From assembly GCA_024692905.1 (NCBI GenBank), contig JAILLY010000066.1:2912-66911 (forward strand): a stretch of 64,000 nt of DNA, given 5' to 3'. How positions within the stretch are numbered: position 1 is the first letter of the stretch; every line of letters starts with the position of its first letter. Shown one piece after another: positions 40,304 through 61,351 of the stretch. This DNA comes from Lachnospiraceae bacterium. Lineage in GTDB: Bacteria; Bacillota; Clostridia; Lachnospirales; Lachnospiraceae. Below the pieces are notes generated by a model. That model saw nothing but the letters and a program-made list of their open reading frames with translations, was not told the origin of the DNA and searched no databases. The position numbers were made by a program, and so were the translations under genes.

Positions 40304-41032
40304 TTACTCCAAATCTTTAATCTGTCTTCTGTCGGGTCCGGCCTTGGCGGCGATAATGACAGTCATGTATCCCGTATCGTCTGCGATATCTTTTGCCGGA
40401 TAAAACACCTCTTCATCGGGAAGCCCGCAGTCTTTTACGGCATATACCCTTCCTTTGCCGTCTTCCTCATACTTGATGAGTTTATCTTTAAGCGCCGCAA
40501 TATTTTTTGACACCTTCATAAAGACCCTTGTATCACCGTCATCCGGCAGTTTCTCATCGTCAAAGCCGGCCAGGATATGGAGGTTTTCCTTTCCCTCGCA
40601 CAGGGTTACCCCGAGACGGTTTGCCGCCGCGCAGAAGGATGTTACGCCGCTTATCCTCTCGACCCTGTATCCGGCGGCAATGACCGGCGCTGCTATATAG
40701 CCAAACGTCGAATAAACACTCGGGTCACCTATCGTTAAAAACGCGGCATTCCTGCCTTCATCAAGGACCTCTCCGATCTTAAGCGCCACTCTTTCATGGA
40801 ACTTATGCAGTTCCTCCTTGTCCATGCTCATCGGAAAAGGTTCAAAAATGCATTCCTTCTCCCCGATCTCATTACATATCTGCCTTGCTATCTCATAGGC
40901 ACGGCAGCCCGCACGGTCCGAAGCGGGAAGGATGAGCACATCCGCATCTCTTATGGCATTTACGGCCTTGATCGTCATCAGTTCCGGATCTCCCGGGCCG
41001 ACGCCTATACCGGTCAGTATCCCCTTTTCCAT
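40304..41032 (-). CDS. cbiL: Precorrin-2 / cobalt-factor II C20-methyltransferase
   Basis: GIGVGPGDPELMT tetrapyrrole-methylase signature. 242 aa, next to cbiC. Confidence 0.8.
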   Translation of the reverse strand: MEKGILTGIGVGPGDPELMTIKAVNAIRDADVLILPASDRAGCRAYEIARQICNEIGEKECIFEPFPMSMDKEELHKFHERVALKIGEVLDEGRNAAFLTIGDPSVYSTFGYIAAPVIAAGYRVERISGVTSFCAAANRLGVTLCEGKENLHILAGFDDEKLPDDGDTRVFMKVSKNIAALKDKLIKYEEDGKGRVYAVKDCGLPDEEVFYPAKDIADDTGYMTVIIAAKAGPDRRQIKDLE

Positions 41033-41070
41033 ATGCTCCTCCCTCCATTGATACTTTGGCTTTTATCATA

Positions 41071-41721
41071 TCATCCCAGGGCACGTATTACCAGCGCATT
41101 TATGATCGCCGCCGCAACATTGCTGCCGCCCTTTTTCCCCTTTGCCACTATGTAAGGACAGTCAAGAGTCATGATCAGTTCCTTGGCCTCCGTAACATTT
41201 ACGAAGCCTACGGGAACTCCTATTATCCCGCCCGGCTTAAGACCTTCCTCCCTGACCAGTTCATAAAGCCTTATAAGCGCAGTAGGGGCATTTCCGATAA
41301 CAAATACCGTTCCGTCTCCAAGCCCTGCTGCCTTGTCCATACTCAGATATGCACGCGTACGTCCCGTCCCTGCCGATTCCCGGGCGATATCTTCATCCTG
41401 CATATAGCAAAAGACACTGCAGCCAAAGTTCTTAAGCCGCGACATATTTATACCCGACCTTGCCATCTGCGTATCGGTAACAATGGGAAAACCGCTGCGT
41501 ATCGCTTCCGTTATTTCATCCACTGCATTCTCCGAAAAACACAGGTTGCAGGCATAATCAAGATCGGCGGTGGTATGTATAGCCCTCATCACCACCGGTG
41601 CCTTATCCTCTTCAAGAACAATGCCGCGTTTATCAAGCTCCTCCCGGATCATCTCAAAACTCTTCTTTTCTATTTCGGCCGGCGAAAGATCACCGTATCT
41701 TAATCCTTCAATTTCCTTCAT
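41071..41721 (-). CDS. cbiC: Precorrin-8X / cobalt-precorrin-8 methylmutase
   Basis: 216 aa CbiC/CobH-like (IHTTADLDY..., VIGNAPTAL, GFVNV). Confidence 0.85.
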   Translation of the reverse strand: MKEIEGLRYGDLSPAEIEKKSFEMIREELDKRGIVLEEDKAPVVMRAIHTTADLDYACNLCFSENAVDEITEAIRSGFPIVTDTQMARSGINMSRLKNFGCSVFCYMQDEDIARESAGTGRTRAYLSMDKAAGLGDGTVFVIGNAPTALIRLYELVREEGLKPGGIIGVPVGFVNVTEAKELIMTLDCPYIVAKGKKGGSNVAAAIINALVIRALG

Positions 41722-41733
41722 ATTAATATTACC

Positions 41734-43239
41734 TTATATCCCGGTTCCTTCGATCAGCCTGTAGATCTTATCAATATCAAGGCTTTGTCGCAGTACGTTC
41801 GCAAGCTTATCGTACTGCTCCTCCCTGTATTCCCCGTAGGATAAGGTCCTTTTATCGCGGCGCGATATCCCCTTTATGTCAAACAGCATATCGATCACGG
41901 CTTCCTTAAACGGTGTATCATCAAATATCCCGTGCAGGTATGTACCGATACAGCGGCCTTTTACACACCCCTCCGGCCCGTCAGTCCTTGCAAAATCCGA
42001 TCCGTCCCCGTTTAAGCGGCAGCTCCTGCCCATGTGTATCTCATATCCGTTTACGGGAAGATGCGATAATCTTTCAAACGTTCCGTTAAAGTCAAGTGTC
42101 CGGCCTTTTGTCTGCCTTGTGACCTTTGACGTCTCAAATACGGTTTCTACGGGAAGAAGTCCCATCCCCCTGATGCTTCCGCCTCCTTCGGTCCCGGATC
42201 CGTCCGTTATCTTCCGACCCATGAGCTGGTATCCGCCGCAGATGCCGAATACAATGACTCCGTGTGAATTTGCCTTAAGGATCGCCGCTTCAAGGCCGCT
42301 CTCCCTTAAGAACCTCATGTCATCTATCGTATTCTTGCTCCCCGGTATTATTATCATGTCCGGATCGCCGAGTTCTTCCGGTTCCTTTACATATCTTATA
42401 CATACATCCTCATCGGTCTCAAACGAAGCTGTATCCGTGAAATTCGATATTCGTTTAAGCCGGATGACAGCTATATCCGCCTTATAACGGCCTGCACTTA
42501 TGCGCGGCTTAAAGAGTGACTCTCCCGAAAGGGAATCCTCATCTTCAATATGGAGATCAGACCAGGGAACGACGCCGAGCACCGGCTTCCCGGTCTTTTC
42601 AGAAAGCATCGTAAGCCCGGGATCAAGCAGCGAAACATCGCCTCTGAACTTATTTATTATGAATCCAAGGACCCTGTTCCTGTGGGCTTCGTCAAGCAGC
42701 TCCATAGTCCCCACAAGCTGCGCGAACACTCCGCCACGGTCTATATCTCCGACGAGCAGGACCGCAGCGTTTGCGATATCAGCCATGCCCATGTTCACTA
42801 TGTCATTCTTGCTAAGGTTGATCTCCACAGGGCTTCCGGCACCCTCAATGACAATAATGTCGTTTTCGGCAGCAAGACCTTCGTATGCCGAACGGATGAC
42901 GGGGATATACTCCGTCTTTTTACGGTAATATTCGGAAGCACTCATATTACCGGCCGCAGACCCCATTACAATGACCTGGGATCCGGTATCCGTGGTGGGC
43001 TTAAGCAGGATAGGATTCATCCTGACATCGGGCTTTTTCCCTGATGCTTCAGCCTGCACGGCCTGTGCGCGACCGATTTCACCGCCGCTTGCGGTGATAT
43101 ATGAATTAAGCGCCATATTCTGGGACTTAAACGGCGCAGTCTTATAGCCGTCCTGAGTAAATATCCGGCATAAACCGGCCGTGATCAGGCTCTTTCCGAC
43201 ATTGCTCATAGTCCCCTGGATCATCAGTGCCCTTGCCAT
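41734..43239 (-). CDS. cobQ: Cobyric acid synthase
   Basis: MIQGTMSNVGKS N-terminus plus a GATase C-domain (GICGGYQ). Start trimmed to MARALM (ATG 43239, GGAGG upstream). Confidence 0.9.
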   Translation of the reverse strand: MARALMIQGTMSNVGKSLITAGLCRIFTQDGYKTAPFKSQNMALNSYITASGGEIGRAQAVQAEASGKKPDVRMNPILLKPTTDTGSQVIVMGSAAGNMSASEYYRKKTEYIPVIRSAYEGLAAENDIIVIEGAGSPVEINLSKNDIVNMGMADIANAAVLLVGDIDRGGVFAQLVGTMELLDEAHRNRVLGFIINKFRGDVSLLDPGLTMLSEKTGKPVLGVVPWSDLHIEDEDSLSGESLFKPRISAGRYKADIAVIRLKRISNFTDTASFETDEDVCIRYVKEPEELGDPDMIIIPGSKNTIDDMRFLRESGLEAAILKANSHGVIVFGICGGYQLMGRKITDGSGTEGGGSIRGMGLLPVETVFETSKVTRQTKGRTLDFNGTFERLSHLPVNGYEIHMGRSCRLNGDGSDFARTDGPEGCVKGRCIGTYLHGIFDDTPFKEAVIDMLFDIKGISRRDKRTLSYGEYREEQYDKLANVLRQSLDIDKIYRLIEGTGI

Positions 43240-43287
43240 TACCGCCTCCAAAGACCGATAAACGTTGTGCATCTTCCCGCGTTCAAA

Positions 43288-43318
43288 GAAGGCCCCGCCA
43301 ACGACCGGCAGGGCCTTC
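43288..43318 (-). terminator. Hairpin after metY (terminator candidate, short U-tract)
   Basis: Minus strand GAAGGCCC-tgccggtcgttggcg-GGGCCTTC followed by TTTG. Confidence 0.4.
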
Positions 43319-43375
43319 AATTCGTTACAGCAATATGATTTTATTACAAAAGGCTGATATAGTACAGTATTTTTC

Positions 43376-44659
43376 TTATCTTGCGGCAGCAAATCCTTTC
43401 TCAAGATCGGCTATGATATCATCTATGTGCTCCGTTCCGATGGAAAGACGTATCGTATTCTGCTTAATACCCTGATCGAGAAGTTCTTCGTCATTAAGCT
43501 GCGAATGGGTGGTTGAAGCGGGATGTATAACAAGACTCTTCACATCGGCAACGTTCGCAAGAAGTGAGAATATCTCGAGGTTGTCGATAAACTTCCATGC
43601 TTCATCCTTGCCGCCCTTTATCTCGAAAGTGAAGATGGACGCTCCGCCGTTGGGGAAATATCTCTCATAAAGCGCATGATCCGGATGATCTGAAAGCGAA
43701 GGATGATTTACCTTGACAACCTGAGGATGTTTGCTCAAATACTCAACAACCTTCTTAGTATTCTCCGCATGGCGCTCAAGCCTGAGGGACAGGGTCTCAA
43801 CTCCCTGAAGGAGAAGGAATGCGTTGAACGGTGAGATCGTTGCGCCGGTATCCCTTAAAAGAATGGCACGGATATAGGTTACGAATGCGGCAGGGCCGAC
43901 AACATCATAGAATGATACTCCGTGATAGCTGGGATTCGGTGCTGCGATATTGGGATACTTGCCGCTTGCCTTCCAGTCAAACTTTCCGGATTCAACTATT
44001 ATGCCGCCCAGTGTGGTACCGTGGCCGCCGATGAACTTGGTCGCCGAATGGACAACGATATCCGCTCCGTGCTCGATCGGACGGATAAGATAAGGTGTTC
44101 CGAAAGTATTGTCTATAACGAGCGGAAGCCCGTGACTGTGTGCGATCTTTGCTATCGCATCTATGTCGGGTATATCACTGTTGGGATTGCCGAGAGTCTC
44201 AAGATAGATCGCCCTTGTGTCATCCTGAATCGCGTCTTCGACTTCCTTAAGATCGTGTGCATCAACAAAAGTCGTGGTGATGCCATACTGGGGAAGCGTA
44301 TGTGCGAAAAGGTTATATGTTCCGCCGTAGATCGTCTTCTGGGCTACTATATGTCCGCCGTTTGCGGCAAGTGCCTCGATCGTATAGGTTATGGCAGCCG
44401 CTCCCGAAGCAAGTGCGAGTGCTGCGCTTCCGCCTTCAAGTGCCGCAAGCCTCTTCTCGAGGACATCCTGCGTGGTGTTCGTAAGCCTTCCGTAGATATT
44501 TCCCGCATCTGCAAGACCGAAACGGTCCGCTGCGTGTTTGCTGTTGTGGAATACATATGAAGTCGTCTGGTAGATGGGTACCGCACGCGAATCGGTTGCG
44601 GGATCCGCCTCTTCCTGTCCTACATGTAACTGAAGTGTTTCAAATCTGTAATCGCTCAT
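43376..44659 (-). CDS. metY: O-acetylhomoserine sulfhydrylase (aminocarboxypropyltransferase)
   Basis: 427 aa Cys/Met-metabolism PLP enzyme ([12 protein letters not shown] contains the PLP lysine; N-terminal [11 protein letters not shown]). Confidence 0.9.
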
Positions 44660-44754
44660 TTTTTCTCTCCTTTGTTTTCTGTTATCTGAAATATATAAAT
44701 GTCAGTTGCTTCTTACGTATCCGTCCCCGCCGGGTACATGAGCCTTATCTGCAT

Positions 44755-44785
44755 AAAAAATCCCGGGGCTTATTCATCTCCCGGG
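44755..44785 (-). terminator. Attenuator terminator in the metY leader
   Basis: Minus strand CCCGGGAG-atgaataagc-CCCGGG then A-TTTTTT. Both arms have complementary partners inside the upstream leader ORF (CTCCCGGG at 44875-44868; GGGGGCTTAT at 44854-44845 pairs with ATAAGCCCC). Confidence 0.65.
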
Positions 44786-44814
44786 TAATCGGCATTCACT
44801 GGATCCAATATCCT

Positions 44815-44937
44815 TTAGATCTTATCGGGCTGATGCATCAAGACATAAGCCCCCGCCGTATTACTTACCCGGGAGTTCTGCATTCGGCAACAACACATAA
44901 TCTCATTTTCCTGTGCATATGTCCTGATACCGTTCAT
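44815..44937 (-). CDS. Cys/Met-rich leader peptide, 40 aa (MNGIRTYAQENEIMCCCRMQNSRVSNTAGAYVLMHQPDKI)
   Basis: AAGGAG lies 9 nt upstream of the ATG, and the ORF starts about 24 nt after the predicted TSS. Codons 14-19 are ATG TGT TGT TGC CGA ATG. A paralogous peptide sits at 50737-50850. Confidence 0.6.
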   Translation of the reverse strand: MNGIRTYAQENEIMCCCRMQNSRVSNTAGAYVLMHQPDKI

Positions 44938-44967
44938 CTCGTTTATCTCCTTTCGTTTGTTTTCCAT

Positions 44968-45006
44968 ATAATAACACCACCTGCCTACCGTGTCAATAGG
45001 TTTTAA
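44968..45006 (-). promoter_or_regulatory. metY promoter with conserved operator-like box (copy 1 of 3)
   Basis: Minus strand TTAAAACCTATTGACACGGTAGG (45006-44984). TTGACA (44996-44991), 17 nt spacer, TATTAT (44973-44968). Confidence 0.7.
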
Positions 45007-45030
45007 GAATAAATTTATGACTCTCCCGTA

Positions 45031-45765
45031 TCAATATTCAAAAGAGTCAAGGAAGCGTCTTGCGCGTTCCGTACGGGGATCCGTAAAGAACTCATCGGGC
45101 CTGCCCTCTTCAACTATCCTTCCGCCGTCTATGAACACGATCCTGTCGGCAACGGCCCGGGCAAAAGCCATCTCATGCGTTACTATGAGCATGGTCCTTC
45201 CTTCTTTCGCAAGCGACAGTACAACTTCAAGAACTTCGCGCACCATTTCGGGATCCAACGCCGCAGTCACCTCGTCAAAAAGAAGTATCTCGGGGTGCAT
45301 TATCAATGCCCGCACTATGGCCACCCTCTGTTTCTGTCCTCCGGAGAGCTGCCTGGGATACTGATCCTTCTTATTTGAGAGTCCGACCCGCTCAAGCAGG
45401 CTGACGGCCTCCCTGACGGCCTCATCCTTATTTCTTCCCTGAACCTTGACAGGCGCAAGGGTTATATTCTGGAGTATGGTCTTATGAGGGAAAAGATCGT
45501 AACTTTGGAATACCATCCCTATCTTCTGGCGGTCCTTTGCGATATCGACACCCGTGGGGTTTATGATTTTCCCGTCAAGCAGGACCTTCCCGTCCTCGAT
45601 CTTTTCAAGTCCGTTAAGGCACCTTAAAAATGTGCTCTTTCCGCAGCCCGAAGGCCCGACGATCACAACGACCTCGCCGGGATTTACCGTCATATTCACA
45701 TCATCAAGCACGGTATATCCGTCAAATTCCTTATGCAGATGCTCCACTGTGAGTATCGGATCCAT
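45031..45765 (-). CDS. Polar amino acid (cystine/glutamine-type) ABC transporter ATP-binding protein
   Basis: GPSGCGKST, LSGGQKQRV, LLFDE motifs, GlnQ/TcyN-like. Start trimmed to MDPILT (ATG 45765, GGAGG upstream). Confidence 0.88.
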   Translation of the reverse strand: MDPILTVEHLHKEFDGYTVLDDVNMTVNPGEVVVIVGPSGCGKSTFLRCLNGLEKIEDGKVLLDGKIINPTGVDIAKDRQKIGMVFQSYDLFPHKTILQNITLAPVKVQGRNKDEAVREAVSLLERVGLSNKKDQYPRQLSGGQKQRVAIVRALIMHPEILLFDEVTAALDPEMVREVLEVVLSLAKEGRTMLIVTHEMAFARAVADRIVFIDGGRIVEEGRPDEFFTDPRTERARRFLDSFEY

Positions 45766-48920: not shown

Positions 48921-50609
48921 TTAACCTTCAAAGAATACCACTGCTCCGTCATAAGTGTCTTCGATGAACTTCTTGATGTCATCAGACCTTAATACCTTGA
49001 CGAGAGCCTGGATCTTTGCATCATTCTCATGTCCCTCGTATACCGCGATGATATTAACGTAGGTCTTGGCCGCGACCGAATCCGTTGCCTCATAAGCTAT
49101 GGAATCATGTCCTACGGAATATCCTGCCTCAAGAGCATAGTTTCCGTTGAGTACAACGTATGAAACCTCACTGACGACCCTTGCGACCTGAGCCGCTTCA
49201 AGCTCGACAAACTTGATCTCATAGGGATTTTCGGTGATGTCGTTAACCGTGGCGGTAAGTCCGGCACCGTCCTTTAACGTAAGCAGTCCGTTGTCCTGAA
49301 GAAGAAGGAGTGCCCTTGCCTCATTGGTGGTATCATTGGGGATCGCTATCGTATCACCCTTTGCGATCTCATCGAGAGTCTTCTTGGTACCGGGATAGAT
49401 ACCGAAGGGTTCGTAATGGATATCGCCGGCATCGACAAGATGGGTTCCCTGCTCCTCATTGAAGCTGTTAAGATAAGGTACATGCTCTACATAGTTTGCA
49501 TCAAATTCACCTGATTCAACTACAAGGTTAGGCTGAACATAATCTTCAAACTCAGTTATCTCAAGCTTGTATCCGTGCTGTTCAAGAATCTTTGCTGCTT
49601 CTTCAAGTATCTCCGCATGAGGTATGGGAGAAGCGGCGATCTTTATAACCTCACCGTTTCCGTCCGGAATGTCGAGATCGGAAGCGGCTCCCGTTGAAAC
49701 AGGTGCGGCAACGACAGCGGTGTCTCCGCCTCCCTCAACTACGAGCGTATCCTCATAATCCTTTCCGTAGGTGTCGATAAGAGTGGCCTCATAATCCGCA
49801 TGGAAGAAATTCTCGTTTCCGAGTGCCTTTATCTCATCATTAAGCCAGTCAAGAAGTGTGCTGTTTCCTTTGCTTACGGCGGGAGCTATCGTATCCTGGC
49901 TTCCGAGTGAAGGGATGCCGACAACATATCCCTCGTTCTCAAGCGAATAAGCTATGACCTCTGTATTGTCGTTTGCCCATGCAACGCCTGTTCCGTTCTC
50001 AAACGATGTTTTTGCGGTTGCATATGTATCAAACTTCTGAAGCTTTATCTCCGGGTTGTTCTTCTCAAGATACGTCTCGGCCGTGGTTCCGGATATAACG
50101 ATCACCTGTTCATCGGCACCTATCTGATCAAGGCTCTCGATCACATGATCCTCATGCGAAACGACTCCGAGTGCAACATTCATATAAGGAAGGGCAAAGT
50201 CAACCTTCTCGGCCCTTTCTTCCGTTACCGTGAAGTTTGCAAGTATTATATCGACCTTGCCTGTCTCAAGATATTCAACCCTGCTTGCAGCCTCGGTTGA
50301 AACATAATTGATCTTAACTCCCAGATCCTTTCCTATCCTTTCGGCAAAGTATACGTCATATCCCTGATACTGTCCGTTCTCATCCACATATCCGAACGGA
50401 TTCTTATCGGAAAATACTCCGATGTTGATCTCACCGCTTGCCTTGATCTCATCAAGCGTCCTGTAGATCCTGTTTGCATCGTTCGTTGTTTCAGGGGCCG
50501 TACTCTGGACGGGAGCCGCTGCGCCTGCTGCGCACCCTGCGAGAAGTCCTCCGGTGAGTACTGCAGCCAGTGCTGTCCTTAACACATTCCTAAGTAGTTT
50601 TTTCTTCAT
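48921..50609 (-). CDS. Fused two-domain substrate-binding lipoprotein: SBP_bac_3 (polar amino acid/cystine-type) N-half plus MetQ/NlpA (methionine) C-half
   Basis: Lipobox LLAGC. Residues about 50-290 resemble family-3 amino-acid SBPs (GEINIGVFSDKNPFGYVDENGQYQGYDV...). Residues about 320-562 resemble MetQ (KIAASPIPHAEILE..., IAIPNDTTNEARALLLL). Confidence 0.8.
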   Translation of the reverse strand: MKKKLLRNVLRTALAAVLTGGLLAGCAAGAAAPVQSTAPETTNDANRIYRTLDEIKASGEINIGVFSDKNPFGYVDENGQYQGYDVYFAERIGKDLGVKINYVSTEAASRVEYLETGKVDIILANFTVTEERAEKVDFALPYMNVALGVVSHEDHVIESLDQIGADEQVIVISGTTAETYLEKNNPEIKLQKFDTYATAKTSFENGTGVAWANDNTEVIAYSLENEGYVVGIPSLGSQDTIAPAVSKGNSTLLDWLNDEIKALGNENFFHADYEATLIDTYGKDYEDTLVVEGGGDTAVVAAPVSTGAASDLDIPDGNGEVIKIAASPIPHAEILEEAAKILEQHGYKLEITEFEDYVQPNLVVESGEFDANYVEHVPYLNSFNEEQGTHLVDAGDIHYEPFGIYPGTKKTLDEIAKGDTIAIPNDTTNEARALLLLQDNGLLTLKDGAGLTATVNDITENPYEIKFVELEAAQVARVVSEVSYVVLNGNYALEAGYSVGHDSIAYEATDSVAAKTYVNIIAVYEGHENDAKIQALVKVLRSDDIKKFIEDTYDGAVVFFEG

Positions 50610-50698
50610 AATATTTCCCTCTTTTCTTTTATGATATATTGTTTCTTTCCGTATCGTTACTGTTACATTTATCTCCGAGTCCTTTATGTCCCGGCATC

Positions 50699-50724
50699 AA
50701 AAAAGCCCGGGATCTCTCCCGGGC
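50699..50724 (-). terminator. Attenuator terminator in the transporter-operon leader
   Basis: Minus strand GCCCGGGA-gaga-TCCCGGGC (8-bp stem) followed by TTTTTT. The 5' arm plus loop (GCCCGGGAGA) is a perfect 10-nt complement of TCTCCCGGGC (50795-50786) inside the leader ORF. Confidence 0.8.
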
Positions 50725-50736
50725 TCAGACTCGATC

Positions 50737-50850
50737 TTAACAGTGTGCATGACACGGAAGCCATACACGCCTAAGCCTTACATCAGCCCGGGAGAATAGC
50801 ATTCGACACATACACATCATACAACAGCCATTCATATATAAGCTTCTCAT
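50737..50850 (-). CDS. Cys/Met-rich leader peptide, 37 aa (MRSLYMNGCCMMCMCRMLFSRADVRLRRVWLPCHAHC)
   Basis: AAGGAGG lies 7 nt upstream of the ATG. Eight of nine consecutive codons (9-17) are Cys or Met. It shares the C-R-M-x-x-S-R core and CGAATGC...CTCCCGGG nucleotides with the metY leader ORF. Confidence 0.65.
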   Translation of the reverse strand: MRSLYMNGCCMMCMCRMLFSRADVRLRRVWLPCHAHC

Positions 50851-50880
50851 TGTCCTGCCTCCTTTCGATTCAATGGTAAT

Positions 50881-50920
50881 AAAATACACCCTAATTCCTA
50901 CTGTGTCAATAGGTTTTTAA
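50881..50920 (-). promoter_or_regulatory. Transporter-operon promoter with conserved operator-like box (copy 2 of 3)
   Basis: Minus strand TTAAAAACCTATTGACACAGTAGG (50920-50897). TTGACA (50909-50904), 17 nt spacer, TATTTT (50886-50881). Confidence 0.65.
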
Positions 50921-50927
50921 AAAAATT

Positions 50928-51179
50928 TTAATCCCCTACCTTTTTAATGTATAACTCAAACGTTCCGTCCTCATTATCAACGAGCTTAAGTACCTCGTGG
51001 CCCTCCTCCTTAACGCTCCTTGGCACGTTATTGACCGGTTCACCGTCATTTAAGTGGACCTGAAGTACCTGACCCTCATCAAGCTCATCAAGAGCGACCT
51101 TGGTCTTTACAAAGGTCACGGGACAGTTCACATCCGTAATATCAACAGTATCATCAACTTTAATATCTATCTCAGCCAT
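50928..51179 (-). CDS. TusA/SirA-like sulfurtransferase
   Basis: 83 aa from ATG 51179 (AAGGAGG 5 nt upstream). Conserved Cys in VNCPVTF and a two-layer alpha/beta pattern typical of TusA. Confidence 0.7.
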   Translation of the reverse strand: MAEIDIKVDDTVDITDVNCPVTFVKTKVALDELDEGQVLQVHLNDGEPVNNVPRSVKEEGHEVLKLVDNEDGTFELYIKKVGD

Positions 51180-51223
51180 TTTTTCCTCCTTTTGCGGGTC
51201 CCCGCAAAATACTTGTTTTATCA

Positions 51224-51652
51224 TCAGATCACGATCAGCTCTTCTTTTCGTACAGTCTTCTCTCCTTCTGCTTTCTCAATATGAAATGCATTAAGAACGG
51301 GGTTTTCTTCCTCCATGAGCGAAAGGATCAGATAACTCGCGCTGCTGTCATTGGCCAGCCGCTTATCTTCCTCTGACGGACGCGAGGGTGACGCCGGATG
51401 GGAGTGCCAGTTTCCGAGCGGTTTAAGGGCTCTTGCTCTCATATCCTTTACCGCATTGAGCTGTTCATGCGGATCGATCGTAAAATGCTCGCTGGTATGA
51501 TCGGTATTTGTCAGTATGTATACCTTACATATTTCCCGCACGCCATCCCTGCGATCGACTCCCGCTATCAGTCCGCAGGCTTCGTTCGGGCTTTCCTTAA
51601 GAGAGTGTTCATATATCATTTCAAAATCGCTGCGCTTTATCGTTATCTTCAT
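51224..51652 (-). CDS. JAMM/MPN+ metalloprotease (Mov34 family), copy 2
   Basis: NEACG glutamate motif and HSHPASPSRPSEED (HxHx7Sx2D). Start at ATG 51652 with GGAG upstream. Confidence 0.85.
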   Translation of the reverse strand: MKITIKRSDFEMIYEHSLKESPNEACGLIAGVDRRDGVREICKVYILTNTDHTSEHFTIDPHEQLNAVKDMRARALKPLGNWHSHPASPSRPSEEDKRLANDSSASYLILSLMEEENPVLNAFHIEKAEGEKTVRKEELIVI

Positions 51653-51706
51653 ATATTCTCCGTTCAACTATCATATGTGGTTCCAGCAGCAGCATCCAAA
51701 GAAAGA

Positions 51707-52522
51707 TCATTTGGACTGCTTCAGTTCACACTCCGCCTGCTCATAATCGATAAGCTCCGTTATCGTCGGTTCATCCGAACATACGGCACATCCCTTTCCG
51801 CGGGGAGGAAGCTTTATCTTATGAAATTCCATCTTAAGCGCATCATAAGTCAGCAGGTATCCCGAAAGCAGTTCGCCCGTACCCGTTATATACTTTACCG
51901 CCTCCATTGCCTGAAGCGAACCGATCACGCCGCCCATGGCTCCGATGACTCCGGCCTGTTTGCAGGTTGGGACCGCATCCTTTGGGGGCGGATTCTTAAA
52001 TATACATCTGTAGCAGGGGCTCTCGCCGGGGATTATCGTGGTGAGCTGCCCCTTGAACCGTATGATGCCGGCATGTGATAAGGGCTTTTTTTCCATCACA
52101 CATGCATCGTTGATAAGAAATTTTGCGGGGAAATTATCTGTCCCGTCCAGGATAAAATCATAATCCCTTATAAGCTCGCGTATGTTTGTACTGTTAACGA
52201 ACTGATAATAGGTATTCACAATCACATCCGGATTGATCGCACGCATGGTCTCTGCGGCTGATTCTACCTTCTTCTTCCCTATATCGGGTGTCGTATGTAT
52301 GACCTGCCTCTGAAGATTGGACAGATCGACAACATCTGCATCCGCTATGCCTATGGTTCCCACGCCGGCAGCGGCAAGATAAAGTGCGGCCGGTGCTCCG
52401 AGTCCTCCGGCACCTATTATGAGGACTTTTGCATTGAGCAGTTTTTTCTGCCCTTTTACGCCGATCTCCTTTAATATGATATGTCTTGAGTAACGCTCCA
52501 GCTGTTCATTTGTAAAAGCCAT
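51707..52522 (-). CDS. ThiF/MoeB/HesA-family E1-like adenylyltransferase
   Basis: RYSRHIIL..., GAGGLGAPAALYLAAAGVG nucleotide loop, CYRC and CAVC zinc pairs. TAATG overlap with the ThiS-like gene. Confidence 0.88.
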   Translation of the reverse strand: MAFTNEQLERYSRHIILKEIGVKGQKKLLNAKVLIIGAGGLGAPAALYLAAAGVGTIGIADADVVDLSNLQRQVIHTTPDIGKKKVESAAETMRAINPDVIVNTYYQFVNSTNIRELIRDYDFILDGTDNFPAKFLINDACVMEKKPLSHAGIIRFKGQLTTIIPGESPCYRCIFKNPPPKDAVPTCKQAGVIGAMGGVIGSLQAMEAVKYITGTGELLSGYLLTYDALKMEFHKIKLPPRGKGCAVCSDEPTITELIDYEQAECELKQSK

Positions 52523-52731
52523 TAAAGCCTTCCTCCTCCCATGAAGTATAAGAATTCGACCTCATCACCTTCGTTAAGAGCATGACTGTCAAAACTGCCT
52601 TTATCGATGAACTCCTCATTTACCGATACAGTCACATATTCCGGAGTTTCCACGTTTTCCTGCTCAATAAGCGCAGCGACCGTGATCCCGTCCGCAACTT
52701 CTTTTTTCTCTCCAGCTATAGTGATCTTCAT
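52522..52731 (-). CDS. ThiS/MoaD-like ubiquitin-fold sulfur-carrier protein with C-terminal extension (…FMGGGRL)
   Basis: 69 aa with a beta-grasp pattern (MKITIAGEKKEV...GDEVEFLYFMGG). The diglycine is followed by 2-3 extra residues. Strong RBS AGGAGGG. Confidence 0.8.
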   Translation of the reverse strand: MKITIAGEKKEVADGITVAALIEQENVETPEYVTVSVNEEFIDKGSFDSHALNEGDEVEFLYFMGGGRL

Positions 52732-52759
52732 GATCTTCCCTCCTGTAGTGTTTATTCTC

Positions 52760-53770
52760 TTAAATTATGTAGTACCACTCATCGCTCTGGCTTAATTCTT
52801 CACTTCTTATCTCGTTTTTGTCTGTCCGGTATTCCATCTCAAGATTCTTCATGCTGACCCTTGTGTTCGCATCGATGGAACAGGTGATGAATGCATTTCC
52901 TCCAATGACGGCATTCTCACCGATGACAGTCTCTCCTCCGAGGATTGATGCACCGGCATAGATCGTAACGTTATCGCATATGGTCGGATGTCTTTTCCTG
53001 CCGGAAAGTCTCTGCCCGCCTCTTGTGGAAAGAGCTCCTATCGTGACACCCTGATAAATCTTGACATTTCTGCCTATGACCGCCGTCTCGCCTATAACTA
53101 TCCCCGTACCGTGATCTATGAAGAAATATTTATCGATGGCCGCCCCCGGATGTATGTCTATGCCCGTCTTACTGTGCGCATATTCCGTCATGAGTCTCGG
53201 AAGAACGGGCACCTGTTCAAGATACAGCTCATGGGCCAGCCTGTACACCGTGATCGCCATCAGGCCGGGATATGCAAGAATGATCTCTTCATAACATCCC
53301 GCTGCCGGGTCCCCGTCATAAGCAGCCGAAAGATCCGTCTCTATATACTCACGTATCTTTGGTATCCTGGCAAAGAATGCCTTGCAGATACGGTAACTTT
53401 CCCGCTTCCTTTCATCATCGGTAAGGGTTCCCCTTTTTCTGCAGTAATCAAGGGCCAGATACACCTGTTTGCTCAGATGATAAAATATATCCTCGATGAT
53501 GACGGCAAAACTGTTCCTTGGATTATATATCTTGTAAGAGCGGTCCCTGAAATAACCCGGAAATATTATCCTGAAAAGATTTCTTATAAGTTCATGAACC
53601 TCTGCTTTGTCAGGTTTGTTATATATATTGACCTCATCGATATGTTTTTTTCCTTCAAAATCCTCAAATATGTTTTTGACGATAAGATCTATCTCTTCTT
53701 CCCTTATTATCTCATTCACCGGTATTCTCCTTATATCCTCATGTACTGCCGGATCCATCCGGCAGCACAT
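52760..53770 (-). CDS. Serine O-acetyltransferase, long form (about 150-aa N-terminal domain), encapsulin-operon associated
   Basis: C-terminal hexapeptide SAT core (GIDIHPGAAIDKYFFIDHGTGIVIGETAVIG). 336 aa. The N-terminus reads MCCRM. Confidence 0.85.
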   Translation of the reverse strand: MCCRMDPAVHEDIRRIPVNEIIREEEIDLIVKNIFEDFEGKKHIDEVNIYNKPDKAEVHELIRNLFRIIFPGYFRDRSYKIYNPRNSFAVIIEDIFYHLSKQVYLALDYCRKRGTLTDDERKRESYRICKAFFARIPKIREYIETDLSAAYDGDPAAGCYEEIILAYPGLMAITVYRLAHELYLEQVPVLPRLMTEYAHSKTGIDIHPGAAIDKYFFIDHGTGIVIGETAVIGRNVKIYQGVTIGALSTRGGQRLSGRKRHPTICDNVTIYAGASILGGETVIGENAVIGGNAFITCSIDANTRVSMKNLEMEYRTDKNEIRSEELSQSDEWYYII

Positions 53771-53782
53771 GAAGGCATTACT

Positions 53783-55504
53783 TTAAGCAAATGTCTTTAA
53801 TACTTTAACCAGTGCATCAATGTCATCCGGAGAATTATAAAGCGCGATAGTCGGCCTTACCGAACTTTCATATCCGAAACGGCGCAGAACCGGCTGCGCA
53901 CAGTGATGTCCCGTGCGAACAGCTATCCCGTAGCTGTCAAGCCTCTTTCCGACCTCTTCATCCGAATATCCGTCAAGCTTGAATGACAATGCCGATGACT
54001 TGTTGAGTGCGGTCCCTATAAGATGAAGTCCCTTTACCATTTTCATCTCTTTCATGGCATATGTTAAAAGTTCATGCTCCCAGCGGTAAACGCAGGGCAT
54101 GCCGATATCGGTAAGATAGGAAAGCGCCGCGCCAAGACCGACAGCATCGGCTATGCTTCCCGTTCCGGCTTCGAATTTGTTCGGGGCGGGATTATATATC
54201 GTCCTTTCAAAAGTCACATCCGCGATCATATTTCCGCCGCCGTGATAAGGCCTGGCTGCCTCGAGCAGTTCCTTCTTTCCGTAAACCGCTCCTATGCCCG
54301 TCGGAGCAAAGATCTTATGTCCGGAGAATACAAAGAAATCCGCATCAAGCGCCGATACATTCACCGGTATATGTGCCACCGACTGGGCTCCGTCAATGAG
54401 TATGCGTACTCCGTGCCTGTGTGCGATTGCAATGAGCTCCTCAACCGGAGTGACTGTTCCAAGCACATTGGACACATGGGTCACCGCAACAAATCTGGTC
54501 CGCTTTGTGAAAAGCTTCTCATACTCATGAAGTATGAGCTGACCGGTCTCATCGCAGGGTATAACCTTTATCACCGCACCCGTTTCCTGGGCTATCAGCT
54601 GCCAGGGAACTATGTTCGCATGGTGTTCAAGGATCGAGACGATGATCTCGTCTCCGGGTTCGAGCATCGGCTTTACATAAGCATTTGCCACGAGGTTTAT
54701 ACCTTCGGTCGTGCCTCGCACGAAGATGATCTCATCAGATGAAGGCGCACCGATAAAATCGCGCACGATATCCCTTGCTTTTTCGTATGCATCCGTCGAT
54801 CTTGCCGCCAGAGTATGGGCACCCCTGTGCACATTGCTGTTCTCATGCCCATAATAATACGAGAGTCTGTCTATAACGGCCTTTGGACGCTGCGTGGTCG
54901 CTCCGTTATCGAGCCATATCAGCGGATTGCCGTTTATCTGCTCTTTGAGGATTGGAAAATCATCCCTGATCTGGGCAAGCGACTTGCTGCCTATCCTTAT
55001 CTGGTCGTTCCTCGACGAAGCGGGGGCTGCCTTTGAGGCATCGCCGCTGACACTGTCACCTCCAAGCGATGTGGGGACATCTATCCTGCGGCCTTTTTCA
55101 TACGCCTGCGCCTGAGACATGACTGTCGGGGAATAACTCACGCTCTTTTCACCGGTAAGCACGGGTATATCCCCCATACCGGGGATCATTTCCGCCTCCG
55201 GAGCACTTACCGCCTCAACCGTCTGAAGATACTGATCGGTGTATCCCCCGCCGTAAGCGAAAGGGTGCTCCCAATCAAACGGTTCTGTCACCGGTGTGCT
55301 CAAGCCCGGGATTTCTCCGGCCGTTCCGGCATACGTGCCGGTCGAAGGTATATTCACTTCGGGAACGGATGCTGCCGGTATATCTGTCTCGGGAATACCG
55401 TATACACCTTCCGTAAGATCCGGAAACATCTCATTTGCAAGAATACTGAGTTCTCCCGCGCTTAAGATGCCGTCAGGATTATCAATCGTAATCATAATAT
55501 TCAC
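53783..55504 (-). CDS. SufS/CsdA-type cysteine desulfurase with about 170-aa disordered N-terminal extension (predicted encapsulin cargo)
   Basis: The catalytic part has HHANIVPWQ, SGHK (PLP lysine) and RTGHHCAQP (active-site Cys). The ORF-track start is GTG 55504 and an ATG at 55495 is also possible. It overlaps the encapsulin 3' end. Confidence 0.88.
   Translation of the reverse strand: MNIMITIDNPDGILSAGELSILANEMFPDLTEGVYGIPETDIPAASVPEVNIPSTGTYAGTAGEIPGLSTPVTEPFDWEHPFAYGGGYTDQYLQTVEAVSAPEAEMIPGMGDIPVLTGEKSVSYSPTVMSQAQAYEKGRRIDVPTSLGGDSVSGDASKAAPASSRNDQIRIGSKSLAQIRDDFPILKEQINGNPLIWLDNGATTQRPKAVIDRLSYYYGHENSNVHRGAHTLAARSTDAYEKARDIVRDFIGAPSSDEIIFVRGTTEGINLVANAYVKPMLEPGDEIIVSILEHHANIVPWQLIAQETGAVIKVIPCDETGQLILHEYEKLFTKRTRFVAVTHVSNVLGTVTPVEELIAIAHRHGVRILIDGAQSVAHIPVNVSALDADFFVFSGHKIFAPTGIGAVYGKKELLEAARPYHGGGNMIADVTFERTIYNPAPNKFEAGTGSIADAVGLGAALSYLTDIGMPCVYRWEHELLTYAMKEMKMVKGLHLIGTALNKSSALSFKLDGYSDEEVGKRLDSYGIAVRTGHHCAQPVLRRFGYESSVRPTIALYNSPDDIDALVKVLKTFA
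54995..55504 (-). other. Predicted intrinsically disordered cargo-loading domain of the desulfurase
   Basis: Low-complexity Pro/Gly/Ser/Thr-rich region. It contains GELSILANEMFPDL, which resembles the LARLANEFF-type loading motif reported for family 2A encapsulin cargo. Confidence 0.55.
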
Positions 55505-56438
55505 CTACTTCTACATCCTCAAGCACCGCTATCGCATCATCCGCAAGTATCGCAGCCGAGCAGTACAGAGATAATAAGTAAGATGCCACTCCCTTATCAT
55601 CGATGCCTCTGAAACGCACCGACAGTCCTCTTGAATGTTCGTTCTTGAGTCCTGCCTGGAATAATCCGACAACACCCCTCTTTGCTTCACCCGTACGGAT
55701 GAGAAGGATGTTGGTCTTTCCGCTTTCGGACTTGGGATTCTTAAGTCCGTCAACCAGGAGCTTGTCCGTAGGGATCACAGGGATCCCCCTCCATGTAAGG
55801 AAGTTTCCTCCTGCAATGTTTACAACTACAGGCGGTACACCCCTCTTCGTGCACTCTCTCTCAAATGCTGCGATAGCCCTGGGGTGAGCAAGGAAAAATG
55901 AGGGCTCCTTCCATACCTTGGTTATGAGTTCATCAAGATCATCGGGCGTAGGTGCACCGTTGCGTGTCTGGATCCTCTGGGAATCAGGCACGTTCTTCAA
56001 AAGGCCGTAATCATCATTATTGATCAGCTGGCTCTCCTGACGCTCCCTTAAAGACTCGATCGCAAGTCCGAGCTGCTCCTGGACCTGATCGTAGGGTACA
56101 CTGTAAACATCCTCCACGGATGTGTTCACATTGATGATCGTTGAGATCGAATTAAGGACATATTCGCGGGGTTTCGTCTCATACTCAACATATCCCTGCG
56201 GAATTATGTCTGACTTTTTCGTCTGGGAGCAGAGCACGTCGAGCGGGGTTTCGCCTTCAACCACCCTGTTCACCCTGTAGATACCGGTCTCCAGCCCCTT
56301 GAACTCAAGGAATTTGGTGAGCCATCTGGGGGTGAGTGCTCCAAACTGGGGCTTGGTCTTGGTAATGTTCGCAAGATTATAGGCCGCCTGAGAATCAAGC
56401 GCGTTGATCCCCTCTTTCTTAACTGTTTCGTTTGCCAT
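55482..56438 (-). CDS. Family 2A encapsulin shell protein (SrpI-like, HK97 fold)
   Basis: 318 aa from ATG 56438 (GGAGG 7 nt upstream). Motifs I recall from SrpI-type shells: LTPRWLTKFL, GIYRVNRV, KPREYVLNSISTIINV, ERQESQLIN, TRNGAPTPDDLDELITKVWKEPSFFLAHPRAIAAFERECTKRGVPP, LLSLYCSAAILADDAIAVL. No cNMP-binding insertion. Confidence 0.8.
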   Translation of the reverse strand: MANETVKKEGINALDSQAAYNLANITKTKPQFGALTPRWLTKFLEFKGLETGIYRVNRVVEGETPLDVLCSQTKKSDIIPQGYVEYETKPREYVLNSISTIINVNTSVEDVYSVPYDQVQEQLGLAIESLRERQESQLINNDDYGLLKNVPDSQRIQTRNGAPTPDDLDELITKVWKEPSFFLAHPRAIAAFERECTKRGVPPVVVNIAGGNFLTWRGIPVIPTDKLLVDGLKNPKSESGKTNILLIRTGEAKRGVVGLFQAGLKNEHSRGLSVRFRGIDDKGVASYLLSLYCSAAILADDAIAVLEDVEVGEYYDYD

Positions 56439-56518
56439 TTCAGTTCCTCCTGTCTTATGATTGATCATTTTCTATTAGATAGTCTGCTCCTGACAGACGT
56501 ATCCATCGTAAATATATA

Positions 56519-57976
56519 TCAGAGCCATGCGCCCTCGTGCGAAAACATGATATCCTTCATCGCCTCTATACCGCCCTTTAAGTTGTACATCGGGCCGTTA
56601 TACCCCGCTTCCCTTAACGTATTGATCGCGAGGATGCTTCGTTTGCCCTCCCTGCAGACAAAGACCGTATCCTTATCCGGATCAAGTTCATCCTTTCTCC
56701 TTGCAAGCTGGCCTATCGGGATCACTATCGCATCCGGGAAACGCATTATCGAGCGCTCGTGCGGTTCACGTACATCGATTATGGTCATGGGATCCTTGTC
56801 CTCTATTCGCCTGGCGAGTTCCTCCGGAGTGAATCCTTCGACAGGGATCTCATCTTCCGCAGTTTTAAGATGGCAGAATTCCTCGTAATCAAAATCCTCA
56901 ACCCTGAATATCGAGGGATCTGCCCCGCATATCGGACACTTACGGTCCTTCTTCACCTTAACGATCCTGGATCCGAGATACAGGCTGTCGATCGTAAGCA
57001 GCCTGCCGTCAAGATGTTCTCCTATCCCGATGATCAGTTTAAGTGCTTCATTTGCTGCGATGCTCCCGATGATTCCGGGCAACGGACTTATCGTGCCGCC
57101 CTCCGCACATGTCGGGACAAGCCCCGGCTCAGGCGGTTCGGGAAACAGGCATCTTAAACAGGGACCTCCGTTAAGATTGAAGATGCCGACCCTGCCTTCA
57201 TACTGGTATATCGCCCCGAATACCAGGGGTATGCCCAGAAGTGCACAGGCATCGTTTATAAGATATCTGGACCTGTGATCGCCGGTGCAGTCTATCACAA
57301 GATCGTAGCCGTCGATCATGGATACTATGTTGTCGGCATTGATCCTTTCATTCTCCGATTCAAAATTTATGTTCCTGTTGGTGTTCCTGACTGTATCCCG
57401 TGCCGATGCCACCCTGGGACGCTTAACATCACGGGCACTGTGTATTACCTGACTCTGAAGGTCTTCAAGAGAAACATCATTATCATCGACCACTTTTATC
57501 GTTCCGACACCTGCTGCCGCAAGATACTGGATAACGGGCGAACCCAGCGCCCCCGCCCCCATGACAACGACTCTTGACGCTTTGATCCTCTTCTGGCCCT
57601 TGACTCCTATCTCTCTTAGCAGAAGATGTTTGCCGAAACGTTCAACCTCCTGATCGTCAAGACCGACTTCCTTCCTCCGTTCATCCGGTATGAGATTATC
57701 CGAAGGCGCACCTCCTGCGATCGACGGTAGCAGGAGTACCTCATCATCGGGTTTTAGTTTTCTGTACCACTGATCGGGTTCACTCCTGTCCTCATCCCCG
57801 ACATATAACCTTATAAAGCTGTTAAGTCCTCCGTCTGCATTGAATATCACCTTTTTTGAATCCGGATATTCATCGGTCAGGAAATTGAGGATACTTTTAA
57901 TATCATCCCCCGAAACTTCCACGAAACTGTTCCTTCCGAAAAATCCCCTTAAAGTAGCCGATATATAAACCTTCAT
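56519..57976 (-). CDS. Triple fusion: MoaD/ThiS-like Ubl domain (ends ...LLLPSIAGG) plus ThiF/MoeB E1 adenylyltransferase plus C-terminal rhodanese
   Basis: Residues 1-92 show a beta-grasp pattern with a diglycine at the junction. E1 core GAGALGSPVIQYLAAAGVG with CLRC/CPIC. Rhodanese active loop VCREGKRS. Confidence 0.85.
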   Translation of the reverse strand: MKVYISATLRGFFGRNSFVEVSGDDIKSILNFLTDEYPDSKKVIFNADGGLNSFIRLYVGDEDRSEPDQWYRKLKPDDEVLLLPSIAGGAPSDNLIPDERRKEVGLDDQEVERFGKHLLLREIGVKGQKRIKASRVVVMGAGALGSPVIQYLAAAGVGTIKVVDDNDVSLEDLQSQVIHSARDVKRPRVASARDTVRNTNRNINFESENERINADNIVSMIDGYDLVIDCTGDHRSRYLINDACALLGIPLVFGAIYQYEGRVGIFNLNGGPCLRCLFPEPPEPGLVPTCAEGGTISPLPGIIGSIAANEALKLIIGIGEHLDGRLLTIDSLYLGSRIVKVKKDRKCPICGADPSIFRVEDFDYEEFCHLKTAEDEIPVEGFTPEELARRIEDKDPMTIIDVREPHERSIMRFPDAIVIPIGQLARRKDELDPDKDTVFVCREGKRSILAINTLREAGYNGPMYNLKGGIEAMKDIMFSHEGAWL

Positions 57977-58432: not shown

Positions 58433-58451
58433 ATGATACCGTCAATGGCCT

Positions 58452-59684: not shown

Positions 59685-59695
59685 TTTTGATCCCT

Positions 59696-60076: not shown

Positions 60077-60097
60077 GATCCTTCCTCCAAATTCTTC

Positions 60098-61309: not shown

Positions 61310-61351
61310 ATTATAACGACTACTTACCTACCATGTCAATAGGTTTTTTAA
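61310..61351 (-). promoter_or_regulatory. Promoter of the sulfur operon with conserved operator-like box (copy 3 of 3)
   Basis: Minus strand TTAAAAAACCTATTGACATGGTAGG (61351-61327). TTGACA (61339-61334), 18 nt spacer, TATAAT (61315-61310). Confidence 0.65.

Follow-up and report, generated by a model that had tools for sequence, protein, structure and literature searches.

The leader region in front of metY, an O-acetylhomoserine sulfhydrylase family gene of a Lachnospiraceae bacterium, raises the question of whether it forms a regulatory switch and which signal such a switch would read. We analyzed positions 2,912 to 66,911 of contig JAILLY010000066.1 (assembly GCA_024692905.1), a stretch of 64,000 nucleotides (nt) that is referred to below as the window and numbered from its first letter. 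A preliminary description had proposed a Cys/Met leader peptide with an attenuator upstream of metY, paralogous to another leader at 50.8 kb. The metY leader contains the features of the attenuator class: an open reading frame (ORF) led by a Shine-Dalgarno (SD) sequence, cognate codons, an alternative pairing whose 5' strand is placed for control by ribosome position and, at the sequence level, a terminator. The element is probably a ribosome-mediated (leader-peptide) transcription attenuator reading the supply of charged tRNA-Cys and tRNA-Met, a mechanism strongly suggested by the comparative evidence.

The 40-codon ORF lies behind its SD sequence as described and carries a Met-Cys-Cys-Cys run followed by CGA-AUG (coordinates are collected in the table). 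The ORF also contains strand S1, the 5' strand of helix P2 and the whole of hairpin P3. S1 is complementary to a downstream strand, S2, with which it forms helix P1; S2 is also the 5' arm of an intrinsic terminator whose 3' arm is S3, and the antiterminator and the terminator thus compete for S2. The preliminary description had paired CTCCCGGG with the terminator arm, and this pairing turned out to be longer than claimed, a perfect 11-bp complement between CUCCCGGGUAA and UUACCCGGGAG. The terminator itself, CCCGGG...CCCGGG-A-T6, is present where it had been placed.

We searched relatives of metY using one genome per species, which gave 80 loci, mostly from rumen Lachnospiraceae and other Clostridia. 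A sequence-profile search finds the element directly upstream of metY in 27 of them and recovers both window copies. Metagenome contigs were scanned with the exact pattern CGAATG-N5-CTCCCGGG-N63-93-CCCGGGAG, by which P1 is fixed in these members; at least 120 contigs from rumen and human gut carry the element. Only 27 copies are called as proteins in a collection of 5.8 billion proteins, none with an informative name and one as a 'hypothetical protein'. Among the contigs listed (at least 120), the first downstream gene is metY-like in 63 (three are Cys_Met_Meta_PP paralogues, 32-41% identical), a MetQ-like, SBP_bac_3-type or fused binding protein in 25 and an amino-acid permease in 5. An automated pass assigned 11 to 'other' (an NMT1-like binding protein, another lipoprotein type, a B3_4-domain protein and several spurious or partial ORF calls), and 16, mostly contig ends, have no downstream ORF. 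The element also fronts sulfonate-type binding proteins and other Cys/Met enzymes dependent on pyridoxal phosphate in this set. The proposed link to sulfur amino-acid genes is borne out, as the downstream genes are consistently of this kind. Two leader copies are found on one contig (L125), before a metC/metB-like gene and before metQ; in L081-L084 a single leader precedes metY, a fused binding protein, two permeases and an ATPase. The ORF, its frame, the Cys/Met run and the S1:S2 pairing are kept in dozens of independent relatives with compensatory changes, as a test of the preliminary description would have it. By this comparison of sequences, the element is a real, widespread Clostridial family.

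An alignment of 29 sequences made with MAFFT supports three nested helices. In its consensus, P1 is the 10-bp pairing of S1 and S2, P2 is AUGGC:GCCAU and P3 is a local hairpin, GGGGCG...CGCCUC. P1 is 97.9% paired across the relatives, and 6 of its 10 pairs have changed on both sides. Over the three helices 89.7% of the cells are paired, compared to at most 50% with slid partners, and 15 of the 21 pairs change on both sides, a count equalled by none of 500 shuffles. Compensatory variants of P1 include CUCUCAGACA/UGUCUGGGAG in L028, ...CCGGACA/UGUCCGG... in L062 and CUUCCGGG/CCCGGAAG in L061. A retest on 70 diverse sequences concerns P2 and P3 only, P1 being preset by the search pattern: here 76.7% of the cells are paired against at most 47% with slid partners, and double changes number 46 against 18.7 ± 3.6. 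An S2-S3 hairpin (median energy -15.7 kcal/mol) and, after it, a U run of 4 nt or more are found in 123 of 133 distinct members. Distances are narrowly set: S1 begins 11 nt past the last Cys codon in 27 of 28 copies, the start codon lies 42-48 nt from the CGA in 99 of 133, and the distance from S1 to S2 has a median of 91 nt (interquartile range 85-97). This rigid geometry appears compatible with a timed design.

A second pairing in the preliminary description, GGGGGCTTAT with ATAAGCCCC, is real in the metY copy, where GGGGCUUAU pairs with AUAAGCCCC over 9 nt, but it is specific to that copy and was rejected as a feature of the family. The longest complement between the corresponding zones averages 4.6 nt in 133 distinct relatives against 4.3 nt after shuffling, and measures 3 nt in the 50.8-kb copy. 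The segment is the 5' strand of the local hairpin P3 in the relatives; formed together with S1:S2, the second pairing would make a pseudoknot with a 4-nt crossing loop.

The ORF carries a translation signature across the family. In all 28 genome-derived copies an SD sequence stands 7-9 nt ahead of an ATG that shares its frame with the Cys/Met run and S1. The N-terminal 10-16 residues show no relationship in sequence, and their number varies by whole codons only. A frame-blind test takes the nearest ATG located 3-12 nt past an SD-like pentamer; of 126 such ATGs, 119 are in frame and 7 are not. Within the 10 codons ahead of the run, a stop codon interrupts frame 0 in 1 of 134 distinct sequences and the other two frames in 54 and 68 of 134. 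The ORF has a median length of 37 aa (10-90% range 32-41) and always extends through S1.

The sensor codons are concentrated directly upstream of CGA-AUG. With codon positions numbered from the Arg of the invariant Arg-Met, 117 distinct peptides have Cys at position -2 in 77% and at -1 in 68%, and Met at -3 in 54% and at -4 in 33%. The background elsewhere in the N-termini is 0.4% for Cys and 2.6% for Met, which corresponds to an enrichment of approximately 20-190-fold. Both Cys codons are in use (87 TGT and 17 TGC at position -2). Cys and Met replace each other even though two or three codon positions separate them, an argument that selection acts on the amino acid decoded. The composition of the run also varies with the downstream gene, although the numbers are small and the sequences partly non-independent: Met-only runs (MMM) stand before MetQ-like binding proteins, SBP_bac_3-type proteins and amino-acid permeases have Cys-only runs (CCCC, CC) ahead of them, and mixed runs precede metY and the fused Cys and Met binding protein. 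One member, L045, which has lost both Cys codons, is also without a credible terminator. The expectation that the Cys/Met run would be conserved rather than the rest of the peptide holds for the run itself, but CGA-AUG is invariant as well and the residues Ser-Arg-Ala are fixed by RNA pairing.

The window holds the second copy of the element within its 50.8-kb leader. The motif shared by the two leaders had been given as CGAATGC-N5; it is present in both, with the spacing off by one, the exact form being CGAATG-N5-CTCCCGGG (equal to CGAATGC-N4). There are exactly two such sites in the window against 0.00 expected from 100 shuffles; the preliminary description had taken the second occurrence as an argument against chance. 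The two copies also have a promoter segment in common, AAAACCTATTGACAC[G/A]GTAGG, in which 21 of 22 nt are identical. The bases flanking CCCGGG in S1 and S2 differ between the copies, while their complementarity is kept.

From these parts we propose the following course of events. Transcription would start approximately 7 nt past the -10 box (near 44961), and the ORF would be translated from its strong SD sequence. With Cys-tRNA or Met-tRNA scarce, the lead ribosome would stall on the Met-Cys-Cys-Cys codons. By established footprint sizes, a ribosome with the last Cys codon in the A site should protect about 9-10 nt beyond that codon. The front edge of the stalled ribosome would then lie just short of S1, which would stay single-stranded while P3 and P2 fold. 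As S2 leaves the polymerase, P2 would zip into the 11-bp P1 before S3 exists, taking S2 from the terminator and allowing read-through into metY. In replete cells the ribosomes would run through S1, P2 and P3, and S1 would be occupied or unwound when S2 appears; S2 would then pair locally with S3, and transcription would stop at the U run with a leader RNA of about 200 nt. The stalling, the stall-driven choice of the antiterminator and the kinetic order of these events are what we infer. Ribosome-masked minimum-energy folds shift in the direction expected for an attenuator: antiterminator and terminator folds number 61 and 62 with no ribosome, 81 and 42 with a ribosome stalled at Cys, 40 and 83 with a ribosome at the stop codon, and 0 and 121 with a ribosome over S1.

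Several observations speak against the attenuator or complicate it. The two folds are nearly isoenergetic: for the metY copy the energy difference between antiterminator and terminator is -4.4 kcal/mol without a ribosome and +0.6 kcal/mol with the stall mask, and thermodynamics alone does not select the antiterminator in the stalled copy. Folding at equilibrium was therefore not accepted as proving the switch, since the two energies lie too close together to decide. A lone ribosome at the stop codon leaves both S1 (about 58 nt upstream) and S2 (about 28 nt downstream) uncovered. No conserved protector partner of the 1:2 type and no conserved N-terminal hairpin for S1 was found in the family (mean z = -0.45), and a trp-like region 1 hairpin holding the Cys codons is accordingly not supported. 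Protector pairing is typical of trp-type attenuators, but does not define the class. The terminator of the metY copy (6 GC pairs, a 12-nt loop, -11.5 kcal/mol) is weaker than the family median, and a simple terminator scan did not pick it up. Some members have one Cys codon or none, with Trp, Tyr, Gly, Arg or Ser instead. Simple codon counting also leaves unexplained the invariant CGA-AUG and the peptide conservation of a sister subfamily described below.

Because of the near-equal energies, the uncovered S1 and S2 at the stop codon and the lack of a protector pairing, the decision to terminate would have to be kinetic. In replete cells, trailing ribosomes may keep S1 covered, or the polymerase may run ahead with the lead ribosome near S1 as S2 appears. 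In a statement in PMC9226507, the RNA polymerase of Bacillus subtilis is reported to outrun the ribosome. The missing protector pairing also leads us to predict that an untranslated leader would be read through, unlike the trp type. A proportionality between N-terminal length and S1-S2 distance, tried as a signature of a kinetic race, was discarded, as the Spearman correlation of -0.32 has the wrong sign.

Another way to read the conserved fold is that P1-P2-P3 forms a riboswitch aptamer or the target of an antiterminator protein, with the ORF incidental or useful only for loading ribosomes. The covarying three-helix fold itself, the invariant single-stranded CGAAUG adjoining P1 and the control of these genes by S-adenosylmethionine (SAM) riboswitches or T-boxes in many Firmicutes (PMC2965389) would all agree with it. 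Rfam 15, however, reports only a tRNA in the whole window at the gathering score, and at E<=10 the regions 44500-45200 and 50600-51000 give chance-level matches to unrelated families, with no SAM riboswitch or T-box among them. The element is thus neither of the two, the possibility that the preliminary description had singled out for checking. Rfam shows no SAM riboswitch or T-box at 20 metY loci without the element either. Moreover, the loops, the junctions and the stop-codon linker vary in sequence and length, and such free variation of loops and junctions, the would-be ligand site, argues against a binding pocket. The aptamer would also leave the SD sequence, the in-frame ATG, the stop-free frame and the Cys/Met enrichment without explanation, and would not account for a codon mix that tracks the substrate of the downstream transporter. 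We consider it very unlikely. Still harder to credit is a functional Cys-rich peptide (a RiPP precursor, a metal binder or a trans-acting regulator) followed by an ordinary terminator separating two operons. The ORFs are indeed 27-45 aa long, Cys-rich and sometimes called as genes, and leader peptides with trans functions are known (PMC7298713), but the N- and C-terminal sequences are poorly conserved and the residues that are conserved correspond to RNA pairing strands (Ser-Arg-Ala to S1, Met-Ala-Gly-Ala to P2/P3, Arg-Leu to P3). No maturation genes are found nearby, the ORF always lies directly upstream of sulfur amino-acid genes, and within the ORF lies a strand that can pair instead with the terminator's 5' arm and covaries with it.

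CGA-AUG poses a different problem. It follows the run in 28 of the 29 copies that were found without using it as a key, and no covarying partner for CGAAUG was found in the alignments; CAUUUG at the P2/P1 junction was considered and rejected, since it varies while CGAAUG is fixed, with no covariation. A sister leader subfamily upstream of metY keeps the peptide F-x-x-L-[LV]-R-[QES]-N-F-R-[CN]-G-[RVL]-M through abundant synonymous change. Its members include leaders from Treponema (L025, L049, L058, L064, L070) and human-gut Firmicutes (L089, L137, L141, L167, L186, L203); the rumen Treponema leaders have their Cys codons after the peptide motif and a terminator hairpin right past the stop codon, a simpler layout. 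Six residues of the peptide are invariant, each with 2-5 synonymous codons, which indicates that the peptide is under selection, and the nascent chain may contribute to stalling. One could go further and take the nascent peptide (...R-M, or F-x-x-L-[LV]-R-x-N-F-R-x-G-x-M in relatives) as the sensor or a part of it, arresting or slowing the ribosome from the exit tunnel, perhaps in response to a small molecule as in TnaC or SpeFL; on this view the Cys/Met codons would make up no more than a part of the stall site, with the downstream switch unchanged. Besides the sister peptide and the constancy of CGA-AUG, this account can call on the Leu after Arg-Met, which is carried by five different codons. 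It is less consistent with the subfamily of the window copies, where conservation is lacking in the N-terminal 12-15 residues, those that a ribosome stalled at the Cys codons would have in its tunnel, and where CGA is fixed as nucleotides and not merely as Arg, pointing to selection at the RNA or codon level. The arrest peptides known to sense metabolites turn their genes on at high ligand levels, the opposite of what genes for biosynthesis and uptake would need. We regard a peptide sensor as unlikely. A further, doubtful idea is a composite sensor. Hungry Cys/Met codons and a conserved module of the nascent peptide or of codons (CGA-AUG, the sister peptide) would together program the stall. 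The fixed distances (14-16 codons ahead of the run, 11 nt from the run to S1 and about 91 nt on to S2) would tune a kinetic race of the lead ribosome with a fast Firmicute polymerase that is not coupled to it. If true, this would be natural amino-acid attenuation without transcription-translation coupling. The attenuator that reads charged tRNA remains our preferred explanation of the element.

Features of the two leader copies and their surroundings (positions in the window)
Feature	Position	Strand	Description
metY copy: operator	44984-45000	(-)	inverted repeat CCTA-N9-TAGG (CCTATTGACACGGTAGG) around the -35 box; probable transcription-factor operator
metY copy: promoter	44968-44996	(-)	sigma-70-type, TTGACA, 17 nt, TG-n-TATTAT; 11/12 match, near-consensus; similar architecture in relatives
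metY copy: SD	44947-44953	(-)	AAAGGAG, 9 nt 5' of the leader ATG (44937)
metY copy: leader ORF	44815-44937	(-)	MNGIRTYAQENEIMCCCRMQNSRVSNTAGAYVLMHQPDKI, including IMCCCRMQNSRV; 40 codons + stop (44817-44815)
metY copy: sensor codons	44898-44887	(-)	ATG TGT TGT TGC (M-C-C-C)
metY copy: invariant CGA ATG	44886-44881	(-)	follows the sensor codons
metY copy: motif CGAATG-N5-CTCCCGGG	44886-44868	(-)	CTCCCGGG at 44875-44868
metY copy: S1	44865-44875	(-)	CUCCCGGGUAA; 5' strand of antiterminator helix P1, inside the ORF, 11 nt past the last Cys codon
metY copy: P2 5' strand	44854-44858	(-)	CGGCG; partner UGCCG 44794-44790
metY copy: GGGGGCTTAT	44854-44845	(-)	
metY copy: P3 hairpin	44827-44852	(-)	GGGCU/AGCCC + AUGU/GCAU, inside the ORF
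metY copy: P2 3' strand	44790-44794	(-)	UGCCG; partner of 44854-44858
metY copy: S2	44778-44788	(-)	UUACCCGGGAG, common strand; 3' strand of antiterminator P1 or 5' arm of terminator
metY copy: terminator	44755-44785	(-)	intrinsic; CCCGGG 44785-44780, 12-nt loop, CCCGGG 44767-44762 (S3), A, U6 44760-44755
metY	43376-44659	(-)	O-acetylhomoserine sulfhydrylase family (Cys_Met_Meta_PP), domain match E = 2e-135; starts ~95 nt past the U run
Cobalamin-biosynthesis genes	41734-43404, 40304-41721	(-)	CobQ-like, CbiC, tetrapyrrole methylase
50.8-kb copy: whole leader	50699-50913	(-)	paralogous; operator + promoter, SD, ORF, S1, S2, terminator with U6
50.8-kb copy: probable operator repeat (minus-strand promoter)	50897-50913		ACCTA-N9-TAGGT
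50.8-kb copy: leader ORF	50737-50850	(-)	MRSLYMNGCCMMCMCRMLFSRADVRLRRVWLPCHAHC
50.8-kb copy: motif CGAATG-N5-CTCCCGGG	50805-50787	(-)	
50.8-kb copy: S1	50795-50785	(-)	UCUCCCGGGCU, complementary to S2
50.8-kb copy: S2	50725-50715	(-)	AGCCCGGGAGA, complementary to S1
50.8-kb copy: terminator	50703-50726	(-)	strong, U6
50.8-kb copy: CCGGG-like segment	50695-50690	(-)	GATGCCGGGAC, 22 nt past the U run
Fused lipoprotein gene	48921-50609	(-)	SBP_bac_3 + NlpA (MetQ-like), 562 aa; directly after the 50.8-kb leader
Terminator before metN	48913-48890	(-)	strong
Promoter before metN	48871-48844	(-)	near-consensus, directly after the terminator
Sulfur-metabolism operon	50928-61282	(-)	without leader
Cysteine desulfurase gene	53783-55504	(-)	573 aa; likely encapsulin cargo
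Encapsulin gene	55482-56468	(-)	SrpI-like type 2A shell protein
Third operator repeat	61327-61343		ACCTA-N9-TAGGT, probable operator; overlaps the -35 box of a minus-strand promoter and fronts the nifS-nifU sulfur operon
Rrf2-family regulator gene	61415-61810	(+)	CymR/IscR-like, E = 2e-31; divergent, ~70 nt from the third repeat

The promoters of both copies carry a putative operator. The repeat ACCTA-N9-TAGGT occurs at three sites in the window against 0.62 expected, and approximately 100 of 131 distinct family members carry this repeat around the -35 box, with the word CCTATTGA upstream. It is a reasonable inference from the position of the neighboring Rrf2-family gene that a CymR/IscR-like, Rrf2-type repressor acts on all three promoters. 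A second, independent layer of control at the promoter is likely. The operon behind the third site encodes nifS, nifU, a second Cys_Met_Meta_PP enzyme, JAB and ThiF-rhodanese proteins, as well as a hexapeptide transferase (CysE-like), ThiF, JAB and TusA, together with the encapsulin shell protein and its likely cargo.

The genes that follow the two leaders differ. The SBP_bac_3 half of the fused lipoprotein is of the amino-acid/cystine type and its NlpA half of the MetQ type; the gene is followed by metN and metI (a MetNI-type pair) and by a polar-amino-acid-type set of ATP-binding cassette transporter genes with two further permeases and an ATPase. The terminator and promoter located between the binding-protein gene and metN suggest that the transporter genes may be transcribed apart from the leader-controlled binding protein. 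The same SBP_bac_3-NlpA fusion occurs in the relatives L081-L084, L101, L135, L172 and L202. Downstream of metY, the cobalamin-biosynthesis genes follow directly, and the start of the first one overlaps the end of metY, so that they may be co-transcribed with it. A CCGGG-like segment past the U run, fourth of its kind in the 50.8-kb leader, complements the 3' arm of the terminator; such segments are present in 47 of 132 family members, compared to 8 of 132 in a control window. In L125 the second, more divergent copy, MLTDLRLMCCRMHYLRAV..., lies at 11909-11696 (minus strand) before the metC/metB-like gene, a 304-aa ORF, metN and metI. MetY is 85-92% identical across Lachnospiraceae, Ruminococcaceae, Selenomonas/Anaerovibrio and Treponema genomes (L001-L080), and the operator-bearing promoter goes along with it, which suggests horizontal spread of the whole metY cassette among rumen and gut anaerobes.

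The element resembles the enterobacterial attenuators (trpL, hisL, pheL, leuL, thrL, ilvL) in its short SD-led ORF with cognate codons, its antiterminator and terminator hairpins, of which only one can form at a time, its U run, and an output that would be set by the position of the ribosome. It differs in that the sensor codons are Cys/Met, the hosts are Clostridia and other gut and rumen anaerobes, and a conserved protector (1:2) pairing is missing, with read-through as the predicted untranslated default. Furthermore, its antiterminator is a long-range structure of three helices that spans about 90 nt, mostly within the ORF, and the ORF runs approximately 20 codons past the sensor codons, with an invariant CGA-AUG after the run. 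Leader ORFs with Cys codons are known or predicted in Actinobacteria (PMC1262725), and the mycobacterial polycysteine small ORFs are leaderless and act on the next gene's ribosome-binding site without a terminator (10.1101/834739). As proposed for our family, a short upstream ORF signals through its Cys-codon runs how much cysteine is available to the operons of cysteine metabolism, at several loci per genome; only this sensing step is alike, since the element described here has an SD sequence, a covarying antiterminator, a terminator with a U run, and Met codons in the run. The uORFC-8-2 motif upstream of cysS in Rhodobacterales consists of a predicted upstream ORF with two tandem Cys codons and an intrinsic terminator (PMC8632094). 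It is likewise interpreted as ribosome-mediated attenuation, by prediction only, but belongs to another phylum and a tRNA synthetase gene, and has a two-stem structure with the Cys codons in the first stem; no relationship to the metY-leader family is detectable.

Within Firmicutes, S-box (SAM-I) riboswitches and Met/Cys T-boxes are found at this same genomic position and regulate these same genes (metY, metNIQ, cystine transporters), with the same terminator/antiterminator output, whereas the family described here has a translated ORF in place of an aptamer or a tRNA-binding leader, in agreement with the negative Rfam result. Another comparison is with bmrCD/BmrB and vmlR of B. subtilis, antibiotic-responsive genes for which a stalled ribosome in a leader ORF selects the antiterminator over an intrinsic terminator (PMC4191407, PMC9226507). 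These share the Firmicute host and ribosome-mediated transcription attenuation, but their signal is a ribosome-targeting drug and they have no codon run. A His leader is a reported case of leader-peptide attenuation in Firmicutes (PMC2965389). Neither Rfam 15 nor the searchable literature, which is incomplete, describes a terminator switch with a Cys/Met leader peptide for metY or the Met/Cys transporters of Firmicutes. Literature searches on such leaders in Firmicutes or Lachnospiraceae and on the peptide motifs brought up only the cases from Actinobacteria, mycobacteria and Rhodobacterales; the family is apparently undescribed so far, within a textbook class of attenuators.

Amino-acid leader-peptide attenuators are rare in Firmicutes, and this rarity, together with the reported tendency of the B. 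subtilis polymerase to outrun the ribosome, makes a large and rigid Clostridial family a good test case for attenuation without tight coupling. The natural variants with Met-only, Cys-only and mixed runs constitute a ready specificity series, and as a genetic switch responsive to Cys/Met the element is a candidate. The annotation of hundreds of 'hypothetical proteins' of 27-45 aa could be changed to leader peptide. If the proposed mechanism is true, it would show how many gut and rumen Clostridia without an S-box or T-box on metY and the Met/Cys transporters match the synthesis and uptake of sulfur amino acids to demand, with one signal, tRNA charging, coordinating several operons above the shared operator.

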